The position numbers and the translations under genes are program-made. Source: Escherichia phage ev099. From it: DNA of 47,224 nucleotides. Positions 23,124 through 47,224 of this stretch are shown here, piece after piece. Numbering within the stretch: the first letter of the stretch is position 1; each line of letters begins with the position of its first letter. The stretch lies in sequence record NC_049953.1; one strand, written 5' to 3'. Below the pieces are notes generated by a model. The model was given only the letters and a program-made list of their open reading frames with translations, made no database searches and was not told where the DNA came from.

Positions 23124-23704
23124 TGGCATTCAGAATGAGTGAACAACCACGGACCATAAAAATTTATAATCTGCTGGCCGGAACTAATGAATTTATTGGT
23201 GAAGGTGACGCATATATTCCGCCTCATACAGGTCTGCCAGCAAACAGTACCGATATTGCACCGCCAGATATTCCGGCTGGCTTTGTGGCTGTTTTCAACA
23301 GTGATGAGGCATCGTGGCATCTCGTTGAAGACCATCGGGGTAAAACGGTTTATGACGTAGCGTCAGGGGACGCGTTATTTATTTCTGAACTCGGTCCGTT
23401 ACCGGAAAATGTTACCTGGTTATCGCCGGAAGGGGAGTTTCAGAAGTGGAACGGCACAGCCTGGGTGAAGGATACGGAAGCAGAAAAACTGTTCCGGATC
23501 CGGGAGGCGGAAGAAACAAAAAACAGCCTGATGCAGGTAGCCAGTGAGCATATTGCGCCACTTCAGGATGCTGTAGATCTGGAAATCGCAACGGAGGAAG
23601 AAATCTCGTTGCTGGAAGCATGGAAGAAGTATCGGGTGTTGCTGAACCGTGTTAATACAACAACTGCACCGGATATTGAATGGCCAGTAGCACCTATAGG
23701 GTAA
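23123..23704 (+). CDS. tfa: tail fiber assembly protein
   Basis: 193 aa [24 protein letters not shown]...; TAATG overlap with stf stop as in lambda. Confidence 0.93.
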
Positions 23705-33058: not shown

Positions 33059-33191
33059 TTTTGGGTACTCCTGGCTGATTAAGTATGTCGATAAGGCGTT
33101 TCCATCCGTCACGTAATTTACGGGTGATTCGTTCAAGTAAAGATTCGGAAGGGCAGCCAGCAACAGGCCACCCTGCAATGGCATATTGCAT
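33051..33191 (-). CDS. cIII: CIII FtsH/HflB inhibitor (46 codons here)
   Basis: [46 protein letters not shown] then TAA. Confidence 0.85.
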   Translation of the reverse strand: MQYAIAGWPVAGCPSESLLERITRKLRDGWKRLIDILNQPGVPKNG

Positions 33192-33263
33192 GGTGTGCTC
33201 CTTATTTATACATAACGAAAAACGCCTCGAGTGAAGCGTTATTGGTATGCGGTAAAGCCGCAC

Positions 33264-41855: not shown

Positions 41856-42239
41856 ATGCGTGATATTCAGATGGTTCTTGAGCGTTGGGGAGCGTGGGCG
41901 GCTAATAATCATGAAGATGTGACCTGGTCGTCCATTGCCGCCGGTTTTAAGGGATTAATTACTTCAAAAGTAAAATCTCGCCCGCAATGTTGTGACGATG
42001 ACGCGATGATCATTTGCGGGTGCATGGCCCGTCTGAAAAAGAACAACAGCGATTTGCACGATTTATTAGTAGATTATTATGTAGTCGGTATGACATTCAT
42101 GTCACTGGCAGGTAAGCATTGCTGCTCTGATGGTTATATCGGGAAAAGGTTACAGAAGGCTGAGGGTATAATTGAAGGGATGTTAATGGCATTAGATATC
42201 CGGTTAGAGATGGATATCGTTGTTAATAACTCTAATTAA
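41856..42239 (+). CDS. Q: late gene antiterminator Q, phage 82 / DLP12 QuuD type
   Basis: [33 protein letters not shown]... with Cys-rich zinc-binding region; not lambda-type Q. Confidence 0.88.
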
Positions 42240-42272
42240 TATGCCAATTGTTTACTAAAAATTATTAAAAAT

Positions 42273-42290
42273 GGGGCGTTGAGACGCCCC
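42273..42290 (-). terminator. hairpin plus T-run (minus strand) in the Q-to-porin intergenic region
   Basis: ggggcgtctcaacgcccc followed by atttttaataattttt on minus strand. Confidence 0.5.
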
Positions 42291-42380
42291 CAAAAATAAA
42301 GGGTAATATATAACAGAAGGTTTATATAGTTAGAAGCAAGGTTGTGCTCCTAAAGGAAGTGGCTTGAGGGAGCCACTTAT

Positions 42381-42417
42381 ATGTTGGGGAGGCAAAGCCT
42401 CCCGCAACATATCTTTT
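42381..42417. terminator. palindromic hairpin (GTTGGGGAGGC...GCCTCCCGCAAC) usable as terminator in either direction; tR'-like on plus strand and porin terminator on minus
   Basis: 12-bp stem; plus strand followed by atctttt. Confidence 0.5.
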
Positions 42418-42427
42418 AGTAATCAAA

Positions 42428-43510
42428 TTAGAACTGGTAAACCATACCTACAGCAACGATATCATCGGTAGCAACGCCAGATGCTTTCGTGAAATCGCTC
42501 TTATCAATCAGGTTGATTTTGTAGTCAACAAAAGTGGACATATTTTTGTTGAAGTAATAGGTTGCACCTACATCAACATATTCAACCAGGTCCTGATCAC
42601 CCCAAACACCCAAGTCTTTTCCTTTAGAATGCAGGTAAGCAACGGATGGACGCAGGCCGAAGTCGAACTGATATTGTGCAACAGCTTCGAAGTTTTGTGC
42701 TTTGTTGGCAATATGGTTATTACCAAAAACAGTCATGTTCTGGGTTTCAGAATAGGTGGTGGCCAGATAGATGTTGTTCGCATCATATTTCAGACCAGCT
42801 GCCCATACTTCAGCATTTTGACCAGAAGCATTCAGACCGTTGTTACCGTAGATAACCTGATTATTAGTGCGATCAGATTTAGCATAGGTTGCACCCACGC
42901 CGAATCCTTCATACTCATAAGTAGTTGAGAAACCGAAACCATCGCCATTAGCTTCAGTTACTTCATTTCGGTCATTTTTGCCCTGATACTGAGCTGCAAA
43001 GTTCAGGCCATCAACCAGACCAAAGAAGTCGTTGTTACGATAAGTTGCAACACCTGTGGTGCGACCAGTCATGAATACATCTGTTTGGGTCCAGGTATCG
43101 CCACCGAATTCTGGCAGAACGTCAGTCCACGCACCGATGTCGTATGCTACACCGTAGTTACGGCCGTAATCGATTGAGCCGTAGTCACCGAATTTCAGGC
43201 CTGCAAATGCAAGACGGGTTTTGTCTTTGGAGGAACCTTGAGATTCAGCGCGGTTGCCTTTGAATTCATATTCCCACTGACCGAAACCAGTCAGTTGATC
43301 GTTGATTTGGGTTTCACCTTTGAAGCCAAGACGGGCATAAGTAGTATCACCATCATCTGCATCATTAGAGGAGAAGTAGTGCTTAGCATTAACTTTCCCG
43401 TACAGATCCAGCTTGTTACTGTCTTTATTATAAATTTCAGCTGCCTGAGCAGACATCGCCATCAGTACTGATGCAGCTACAGCAGAAATTGCCACTGTTA
43501 ATTTTTTCAT
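42428..43510 (-). CDS. outer membrane general porin (NmpC/Lc/OmpC family), intact
   Basis: 360 aa; signal peptide [39 protein letters not shown]..., C-terminal ...VAVGMVYQF. Confidence 0.93.
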
Positions 43511-44098
43511 CGTGAGCCCTTTTTTTTGAACTATTATTAAAAAATGATGTCACTGCGCGATAAATATTCATCTAATCAATGTGATTATTTCAAGATGTAA
43601 GTTTTAGTTTCTCATTTAATTTGTGAAGTAGATCTCTATTTTTATCTGAACTTTTTCTATCGAAACCTATTTATGGCTCTTATTTGAACAAAAATAAACC
43701 TATTAGCTAATTTATATTAATGGCTGTTATTTATGGGGGTTCTATAATTCGGCAGTTTAATTTAAATCAACTAAAAATAACCTCTGAAATTATTTATTGG
43801 TTATTTGTTGAGGTTTTCTTATGTATTTGTGGTGGTGTTTTGAACACTCGGTAGCATTCTCATAAATATCATTCAGTGGTTTACGTACGTAAAAAATTGG
43901 TTATGCTGTTAAGAGTGGTTACTTCGTCACACAGCTTAAACCCGCCGTCGAGCTGGTTTTTCCATTTTTTGAGTCTCGATATTAGCTGATAACTCAATAC
44001 CTGAGTTATTCACTGACTCCGAGTCTGTTACGTTTCTGCTTTTTTGCGATACGTTGTATTCCCTCAATTTACACCCGCTTTGTCTGCGAGGTGGGGTT

Positions 44099-44314
44099 AT
44101 GAAATCCATGGATAAGTTAACAACGGGTGTCGCCTATGGCACCTCAGCAGGTAGTGCCGGTTACTGGTTTTTACAGCTGCTCGATAAAGTCACGCCCTCA
44201 CAGTGGGCAGCAATAGGTGTGCTGGGTAGCCTGGTATTTGGCCTGCTGACGTACCTGACAAACCTTTATTTCAAGATTAAAGAAGATAAGCGCAAGGCTG
44301 CGAGAGGTGAATAA
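44099..44314 (+). CDS. S: class II holin / pinholin (S21-type) with dual-start MKSM motif
   Basis: 71 aa [71 protein letters not shown]. Confidence 0.9.
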
Positions 44315-44811
44315 TGCCTCCATCATTACGAAAAGCCGTTGCTGCTGCTATTGGTGGCGGAGCAATTGCTATAGCATCAGTGTTAATTACTGGCCCAAGT
44401 GGTAACGATGGTCTGGAAGGTGTCAGCTACATACCATACAAAGATATTGTTGGTGTATGGACTGTATGTCACGGGCATACAGGAAAAGACATCATGCTCG
44501 GTAAAACGTATACCAAAGCAGAATGCAAAGCCCTCCTGAATAAAGACCTTGCCACGGTCGCCAGACAAATTAACCCGTACATCAAAGTCGATATACCGGA
44601 AACAATGCGCGGCGCTCTTTACTCATTCGTTTACAACGTGGGTGCTGGCAATTTCAGAACATCGACGCTTCTTCGCAAAATAAACCAGGGCGATATCAAA
44701 GGCGCATGTGATCAGCTACGTCGCTGGACATATGCTGGCGGTAAGCAATGGAAAGGTCTCATGACTCGTCGTGAGATTGAGCGTGAAATCTGTTTGTGGG
44801 GTCAGCAATGA
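44314..44811 (+). CDS. R: SAR endolysin (T4-lysozyme-like true lysozyme with N-terminal signal-anchor-release domain)
   Basis: 165 aa [44 protein letters not shown]...; TAATG overlap with holin. Confidence 0.9.
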
Positions 44812-45245
44812 ACAGAGTAACCGCGATTATCTCCGCTCTGGTTATCTGCATCATCGTCTGCCTGTCATGGGCTGTTAATCATTACCGTGATAACGCCATG
44901 ACCTACAAAGAACAGCGCGACAAAGCCACATCCATCATCGCTGACATGCAGAAGCGTCAACGTGACGTAGCAGAACTCGATGCCAGATATACAAAGGAGC
45001 TTGCTGATGCTAACGCGACTATCGAAAGTCTCCGTGATGATGTTTCTGCTGGGCGTAAGCGGCTGCAAGTCGCCGCCTCCTGTGCAAAGTCAAAGACCGG
45101 AGCCAGCAGCATGGGCGATGGAGAAAGCCCAAGACTTACAGCAGATGCTGAACTCAATTATTACCGTCTCCGAAGTGGAATCGACAGGATAACCGCGCAG
45201 GTTAACTACCTGCAGGAGTACATCAGGACGCAATGTCTGAAATAA
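44808..45245 (+). CDS. Rz: Rz inner-membrane spanin
   Basis: [30 protein letters not shown]... N-terminal TM then coiled coil. Confidence 0.88.
45007..45192 (+). CDS. Rz1: Rz1 outer-membrane lipoprotein spanin embedded in +1 frame of Rz
   Basis: [20 protein letters not shown] lipobox followed by Pro-rich sequence; start codon choice uncertain. Confidence 0.7.
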
Positions 45246-47164: not shown

Positions 47165-47224
47165 GCAGATGATAATTATTATCATTTTGCGGGTCCTTTC
47201 CGGCGATCCGACAGGTTACGGGGC
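47165..47224 (+). other. cos: right cos region (cosQ side and right half of cosN; window ends 4 nt into the 12-nt cohesive end)
   Basis: ...gggtcctttccggcgatccgacaggttacg followed by gggc matches lambda right end plus first bases of left cohesive end. Confidence 0.8.

Follow-up and report, generated by a model that had tools for sequence, protein, structure and literature searches.

In Escherichia phage ev099 (NC_049953.1; 47,224 nucleotides, the whole stretch analyzed here and referred to as the window), a porin gene lies on the minus strand at 42428–43510, between the antiterminator gene Q and the lysis genes. A functional NmpC/Lc-type porin very probably forms, together with its flanks, a reverse-oriented, self-contained cassette (approximately 42240–43880) that was apparently inserted between Q and the late promoter pR′. 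Many lambda-like E. coli phages carry this long-known NmpC/Lc porin gene, of which the window has an intact copy; the Q–porin–S arrangement, the NmpC/Lc porin, and the IpeX small RNA (sRNA) module were already known (1975–2006). The window covers a lambdoid phage genome in full, with the genes in the lambda map order.

The minus strand of 42428–43510 contained exactly one open reading frame (ORF), which starts with ATG, has no internal stop, and encodes 360 amino acid residues ending in VGMVYQF. Residues 29–360 matched the Pfam family Porin_1 (PF00267) over the entire profile (1–337 of 337; E = 3.6e-152; 507 bits, cut-off 23.7); with the OmpC subfamily model of NCBIfam, the score was 515 bits (cut-off 484). 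The mature protein aligned over its full length with the PDB porins OmpK37, OmpC, OmpK36, PhoE, and OmpF (E = 1e-115 to 2e-135), and its end-to-end alignment to 6V78, 2XE2, 1OSM, and 1PHO predicts a trimeric 16-stranded β-barrel. A signal peptide of 23 residues (43442–43510, minus strand), starting with MKK and ending in SAQA/AE with cleavage at AQA/AE, was called by direct reading and by comparison with PA-2 lc (J02580), whose sig_peptide feature has the same length. The loop-3 sequence PEFGG was found at residues 133–137 (LPEFGGD, 132–138), and the C-terminal residue was Phe (YQF). These two features are traits of trimeric 16-strand general porins. An initial sequence-only reading of this DNA had described an intact minus-strand porin of the NmpC/Lc family with a signal peptide and a C-terminal Phe; the uninterrupted frame, the full-length Porin_1 match, and the residues themselves bear out this description.

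The protein was 90.4% identical to Lc of phage PA-2, 90.4% identical to NmpC of E. coli K-12 after removal of IS5, 81.7% identical to NmpC of phage P7, about 80% identical to OmpD of Salmonella and Citrobacter, and 60.5% identical to OmpC of K-12. The comparison with NmpC, Lc, and OmpD, which the sequence-only reading had proposed, together with the ORF, Pfam, NCBIfam, and PDB results, assigns the coding sequence to the NmpC/Lc/OmpD clade of general porins. That reading was also right that nmpC in the K-12 prophage DLP12 is interrupted by an insertion sequence: IS5B is inserted 58 bp before the nmpC stop codon. The ratio of nonsynonymous to synonymous substitution rates (dN/dS) was 0.06–0.12 against Lc, NmpC, P7 NmpC, and OmpD, indicating purifying selection. 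Differences from Lc and NmpC, both synonymous and nonsynonymous, were concentrated in residues 178–232 and 260–268 (window 42815–42976 and 42707–42733), where dS was approximately 1.5 compared with 0.3–0.4 over the remaining gene. This pattern suggests a recombined, mosaic, surface-loop-like allele rather than positive selection acting on single sites. The porin was encoded in 40 phage records, including PA-2 lc (J02580) and P7 nmpC, and its protein cluster at 98% identity had 2,741 members. The uninterrupted Q–porin–S block was present in 34 phage records and in 2,393 of 5,426 complete E. coli genomes (about 44%). A porin match in a Salmonella "phage" (SPF_0923) was set aside because its neighbors are chromosomal genes.

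The 3′ flank of the gene corresponds to the locus of the sRNA IpeX (42257–42427, minus strand), which constitutes the 3′ untranslated region (3′UTR) of the porin transcript. The 188-bp Q–porin spacer was approximately 99% identical both to the quuD–nmpC spacer of K-12 and to the sequence of PA-2. On the porin strand, the stretch 42273–42417 folded into five hairpins (42412–42379, 42378–42357, 42353–42330, 42328–42307, and 42290–42273) with a free energy of -63.9 kcal/mol (z = -8.8 against shuffled sequences). Among them, only the last hairpin (42290–42273), followed by AUUUUUAAUAAUUUUU, had the form of an intrinsic terminator in the terminator scan; the terminator of the porin/IpeX transcript consists of GGGGCGUCUCAACGCCCC and AUUUUUAAUAAUUUUU at 42257–42290 on the minus strand. 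The sequence-only reading had noted palindromic terminators at 42273–42417. The palindromes and a terminator belonging to the porin are present, but the region is one structured 3′UTR, the ipeX locus, and not a series of terminators. The distance from the porin stop codon (42428–42430) to the U tract (42272–42257) was about 160–175 nt, in agreement with the 167 nt published for IpeX, which originates from a phage porin transcript (PMC12197685). IpeX has been reported to repress OmpC and OmpF (PMC12197685, PMC5069750). Since Rfam gave no match at the porin flanks at gathering thresholds, the assignment to IpeX rests on the identity of the locus to those of DLP12 and PA-2 and on the literature. 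The nmpC gene of P7, a P1-type phage with no Q nearby, is also followed by the multi-hairpin 3′UTR, in which the same hairpins are kept and 10 of 56 pairs are changed on both sides in a compensatory manner. The chromosomal ompD genes of Salmonella and Citrobacter lack an IpeX-like 3′UTR and have just a short, simple terminator after the stop codon. The retention of the long 3′UTR in P7 and its absence after ompD indicate that it belongs to the mobile porin module.

Upstream of the gene, a putative sigma-70 promoter for the porin was located at 43564–43593 on the minus strand by alignment and sequence, with the -35 element TTGAAA (43593–43588), an 18-bp spacer, and the -10 element GAATAT (43569–43564). 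The TTGAA of the -35 element was invariant in the upstream regions of the window, PA-2, P7, Salmonella, and Citrobacter. This promoter would place the transcription start site (TSS) at about 43557. A CRP-type site, AGAGA-N6-TCACA (43619–43639, minus strand), which was transferred from the PA-2 annotation (J02580) by alignment, is centered at approximately -72.5 from this putative TSS, and P7 has a perfect TGTGA-N6-TCACA at the matching position. A consensus promoter scan at default stringency gave nothing convincing for the porin promoter or pR′; a relaxed scan combined with cross-species alignment was used for both. The sequence-only reading had assigned an AT-rich promoter region at 43511–44050 to the porin. 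An upstream regulatory region does exist there, but the AT-rich stretch (25–29% GC) is limited to about 43500–43900, and the interval is not the porin's alone, as it also holds the late promoter and the first hairpin after it (43880–43970). A 44-residue ORF at 43720–43854 (plus strand) in the 25–29% GC spacer is listed as a "hypothetical protein" in some phage records; this part of the spacer varies most, and the ORF is unlikely to be a gene.

The homologue of pR′ was found on the plus strand at 43880–43907, with the -35 element TTTACG (43880–43885), a 16-bp spacer, and the -10 element TATGCT (43902–43907), based on homology to 933W and the promoter scan. In a blastn search with the porin–S spacer, window 43879–43961 was homologous to a segment that, in about 290 records of Shiga toxin (Stx) phages, immediately follows Q on its 3′ side; Y10775 and OP797663 annotate this segment as pR′ and tR′. 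Alignment to 933W showed that the -35 and -10 elements, a box in the initially transcribed region, and a hairpin with a T-rich tail are conserved in the window. The box, GTTAAGAGTGGTTACTTCGTCAC (43908–43930, plus strand), is a candidate Q-loading/pause region on the basis of its conservation. Its invariant core, AAGAGTGGTTAC (43911–43922), occurs once in the window and is present after pR′ in 933W, K-12, and mEp332, and with one mismatch in mEp390. In E. coli Sakai, differential RNA sequencing placed the TSS of the short-Q-class PR′ in a position "closely associated with Q" and tR′ 258 nt downstream (PMC7547250). The Sakai coordinates given there disagree with the numbering of NC_002695.2, and the TSS was set by the 258-nt PR′–tR′ distance and the annotated second terminator. 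This distance fits the second terminator only when the TSS lies in the AAGAG box, which by homology would place the TSS in the window at about 43913. In the 1986 annotation of PA-2 (J02580), the distal "CRP binding site" (1067–1087) maps onto window 43914–43934 and overlaps the box. The box is common to 933W and mEp390, and this site more likely belongs to the Q-loading/pause region than being a true CRP site.

The first hairpin after pR′, ACCCGC cgtcga GCTGGT (43940–43957) with a T-rich tail extending to 43970 on the plus strand, was identified by alignment to the "tR′" of 933W and to K-12. Its stem contains a mismatch at 43954 (G-to-T), the same allele as in PA-2. The folding energy of the segment was -9.5 kcal/mol in the window (z = 0.5), -15.1 kcal/mol in K-12, and -21.9 kcal/mol in 933W. 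Both alleles are common among viral contigs of IMG/VR, where 96 carried the T allele of the window and at least 120 carried the G allele of K-12. The allele at 43954 may set the basal read-through into the lysis genes.

Several observations weigh against a functional, self-contained cassette placed before pR′. The -10 element of pR′ in the window (TATGCT) is weaker than that of 933W (TATCAT). A simple terminator scan found no canonical terminator between pR′ and S, the stem mismatch at 43954 lying in this interval, and the main tR′ of Stx phages is the second terminator, 258 nt from the TSS, which has no homologue in the window. The TSS of the porin, the TSS of pR′, and the action of Q at 43880–43913 were placed by homology and motifs. 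Furthermore, nmpC of E. coli B is called "quiescent" in the title of Prilipov 1998, as cited in PMC3333887; judging from this title, expression of the porin in lysogens may be conditional.

The last point leads to another explanation, namely that the gene is an intact but silent cargo, a "quiescent porin" that confers no ordinary conversion phenotype and is kept by linkage or by expression in a special niche. In line with such silence, the 25–29% GC of the region upstream of the porin is typical of xenogeneically silenced DNA, the hexamers of the putative porin promoter are weak, and the CRP site suggests conditional expression. The low dN/dS values against Lc, NmpC, P7 NmpC, and OmpD, however, reflect strong purifying selection, the porin was intact in 155 of the 157 copies in viral contigs, and the structured 3′UTR is conserved with compensatory changes. 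We therefore consider silent cargo rather unlikely and prefer a functional porin.

The placement of the cassette relative to the late promoter was examined through the gene order. Q (41856–42239, plus strand) was assigned to the QuuD/Q933W type by PF06530 (E = 3.5e-53); it was 78–81% identical to Q of 933W and other Stx phages in tblastn and distantly related to the Q21 structures 6P18 and 6JNX. The lysis cassette (44099–45245, plus strand) comprises S (44099–44314), R (44314–44811), and Rz (44808–45245), identified by Pfam P21 holin, Phage_lysozyme, and Rz matches and by the Prokaryotic Genome Annotation Pipeline (PGAP), so that the porin does lie between Q and the holin gene, as had been proposed. 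pR′ does not directly follow the Q stop codon: the 1.64-kb porin/IpeX cassette stands in between, and pR′ is located approximately 400 bp beyond the porin start codon, pointing away from the porin. This order was seen in three independent sets, namely IMG/VR loci, mEp390, and the DLP12 block. The IMG/VR set consisted of 159 loci with 2.2 kb or more of sequence upstream of the box; the hairpin sequence had served to retrieve them, and they sample only the DLP12-type spacer. A porin gene in the reverse orientation was present approximately 400 bp upstream of the box in 157 of them, and Q in the forward orientation followed beyond the porin in 156, giving the order Q(+), porin(-), pR′ box, S(+). 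The distance from the box to S was 172–189 bp. Two loci were exceptions: in locus L176, an insertion of approximately 780 bp separates the porin start from the pR′ box, and locus L117 has a Q with only 45% identity and no porin, with the same box and S. In mEp390, whose Q is 53% identical, a reverse-oriented cargo is followed by a promoter (TTAACG-17-TTTACT), the box, a terminator, and the holin gene; the cargo (locus L007, 3366–4490) is an unknown protein of 272 residues. The DLP12 Q–nmpC::IS5–S block supports the viable hybrid phage 434B. This laboratory phage (OL657227) carries the DLP12 segment ylcG–Q–nmpC::IS5–S, annotated as 434 non-homology, with the crossover in ylcG, and acquired it from its K-12 host.

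The sequence-only reading had held that Q-dependent late transcription must read through the porin in antisense to reach the holin gene; pR′ would then abut Q as in lambda, and Q-modified polymerase would cross approximately 1.8 kb, including the porin, before S. There is precedent for such an arrangement, as the late promoter directly follows Q in lambda, 933W, and ev245, and the plus-strand hairpin at 42376–42412 followed by CTTTTAG could resemble tR′. In ev245, whose Q is 87.5% identical but has a different C-terminus, the box is absent and a separate promoter and terminator directly follow Q, which means that the layout with the cargo before pR′ is not universal in the Q family. The reverse-oriented gene after Q in ev245 (locus L006, 3378–4260) encodes a lipocalin (blc) and lies antisense inside the late transcript. 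In the window, by contrast, the promoter scan found no promoter-like site on the plus strand of the Q–porin spacer (42240–42427); this spacer is the 3′UTR of the porin, which accompanies nmpC in P7 without Q and extends to approximately 17 bp from the Q stop codon. The only homologue of the 933W-type pR′ with its box lies at 43880–43930, downstream of the porin in the direction of late transcription, and the same order recurs in 156 of the 159 contigs and in mEp390. As the porin's own 3′UTR fills the spacer and the order is recurrent, antisense late read-through is unsupported, and we regard it as highly improbable. The position of the cassette between Q and pR′ is retained in the following.

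That the gene is host ompC, the name given by PGAP, or a piece of chromosome joined to the phage by an assembly error, is practically excluded in spite of the RefSeq name "porin OmpC" and the NCBIfam OmpC cut-off that the protein passes, for the identity is only 60.5% to K-12 OmpC against 90.4% to Lc and NmpC, Q and S flank the gene in dozens of isolated phages, and its upstream and 3′ flanks match PA-2 and not the ompC–micF locus, with no micF or ftp neighbors. Orthology to host ompC was rejected on these identities and flanks, and the RefSeq name is to be read as a subfamily label.

Based on these results, the following scheme is proposed. In the lysogen, leftward transcription of the cassette would start near 43557, at a CRP-assisted sigma-70 promoter of its own. 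The product would be a pre-protein with the 23-residue Sec signal peptide read from the sequence, and its export pathway is presumed from knowledge of the family. The porin mRNA would continue for approximately 170 nt through four hairpins to the intrinsic terminator, and this 3′UTR would be IpeX, given the identity of the locus. IpeX processed from the porin transcript would lower host OmpC and OmpF, an activity taken from the literature. In this way, the lysogen may exchange the host porins for the phage porin, which would change permeability and remove the receptors of OmpC/OmpF-dependent phages. A role in lysogenic conversion has been described for PA-2 Lc and for the repression of OmpC and OmpF by IpeX (PMC8065619, PMC5069750, PMC12197685). 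During lytic growth, Q would act at pR′, the position of which is given by homology, and polymerase would pass the hairpin at 43940–43970 into S, R, and Rz. The porin would thus remain outside the late operon, and antisense transcription across it might arise only from N-antiterminated early pR transcripts that pass Q.

The closest known systems share most of these elements. In PA-2, lc (porin Lc, "protein 2", J02580) occupies the same site next to the lysis genes, with an identical signal peptide, a nearly identical 3′UTR, and 96% identity in the upstream region, where the two annotated CRP sites and the hairpin allele are shared; relative to Lc, the porin of the window is five residues shorter and carries the divergent block at 178–232 and 260–268. 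DLP12 (qsr′) of K-12, with nmpC and ipeX, has the same Q (quuD), approximately 99% identity in the ipeX spacer, 96% identity in the porin–S spacer, and the same S/R/Rz order. It differs in that nmpC is split by IS5B, whereas the copy in the window is intact, in the hairpin after pR′, where it has the stronger allele (GCGGGT), and in the lack of 16 bp from the leader; moreover, DLP12 is defective, whereas the phage genome in the window is full-length and extends to cos. P7 nmpC resembles the window in the CRP site, the 5′ leader motifs, and the multi-hairpin 3′UTR, but its neighbors are odaA and ssb in a plasmid prophage of the P1 type, without the Q/S context; this location suggests that the porin and its 3′UTR move as a unit. 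OmpD of Salmonella and Citrobacter shares the TTGAA of the -35 element with the window but has a different signal peptide, and ompD lies in a chromosomal context with EamA and GFA neighbors. Stx phages of the 933W type have, like the window, a homologous pR′ with its box and a cargo between Q and S. There, stx is a Q-dependent late gene lying downstream of pR′ in the sense orientation, whereas the porin precedes pR′, is oppositely oriented, has its own promoter and terminator, and is, by this layout, not a late gene.

A sigmaE-like motif, GAACTA-N16-TCACT (43528–43554, plus strand), was read in the porin leader; it points toward S, and the corresponding TSS would be at about 43559. It overlaps the putative porin promoter (-10 at 43564–43569, -35 at 43588–43593) in the opposite direction. 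Upstream of P7 nmpC, the two hexamers and their 16-bp distance are preserved despite divergence of the spacer sequence; in chromosomal ompD, the motif is not clearly conserved. The primer Pdlp12Fw, which forms the "-121" end of a DLP12 lysis-operon fragment (PMC7918800), maps to window 43438–43457, and the +1 thereby implied for the RpoE-controlled DLP12 lysis operon coincides with the motif. The reverse primer Pdlp12Rv had no match in the window at up to 2 mismatches. The conservation of the motif may instead reflect a RybB-type target, GCAGUGAC, located at the mRNA 5′ end; nmpC has been cited as a RybB target (PMC3333887). That the leader carries a sigmaE-type promoter firing against the overlapping sigma-70 promoter of the porin is a doubtful proposal. 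If it were true, envelope stress would shut off the porin promoter by occlusion, Q-independent transcripts would run toward pR′ and the lysis genes in lambdoid phages, and the common weak-hairpin allele at 43954 would set the leak into S/R/Rz.

The window provides another intact copy of a classic lysogenic-conversion module, in which a phage porin is combined with an sRNA reported to lower host porins. Porin modules of this kind affect antibiotic permeability and the availability of phage receptors in approximately 44% of complete E. coli genomes. The apparent position of the cassette between Q and pR′ would keep the expression of the porin and that of the late genes transcriptionally separate, unlike that of stx in Stx phages. 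The corrections made here guard against misannotation ("porin OmpC", "terminators") and against the mistaken idea that late transcription crosses the porin in antisense.

The remainder of the window was consistent with a lambdoid phage. Positions 1–33 are an untrimmed Illumina Nextera read-1 transposase adapter, TCGTCGGCAGCGTCAGATGTGTATAAGAGACAG, and phage homology begins at base 34. Window 34–24000 contains lambda-like terminase, head, and tail genes that are approximately 97% identical to those of mEp332, Kati, and PhiR34_1. N, cI, cro, O, P, and the nin genes lie upstream of Q; the annotation of upstream genes was projected from NZ_CP084096 as a 100% match and, according to a check of block identity, is valid only for window positions of 30000 and above. 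At gathering thresholds, Rfam detected IS009 at 23466–23664 (plus strand, 229 bits) in the tail-fiber region and the lambda cIII thermoregulator at 33146–33204 (minus strand, 88.5 bits). The sRNA svsR (PMC12247714) was rejected as an unrelated sRNA at cI. The window ends at 47190–47224 with a lambda-type cos, ...CCGACAGGTTACG/GGGC.

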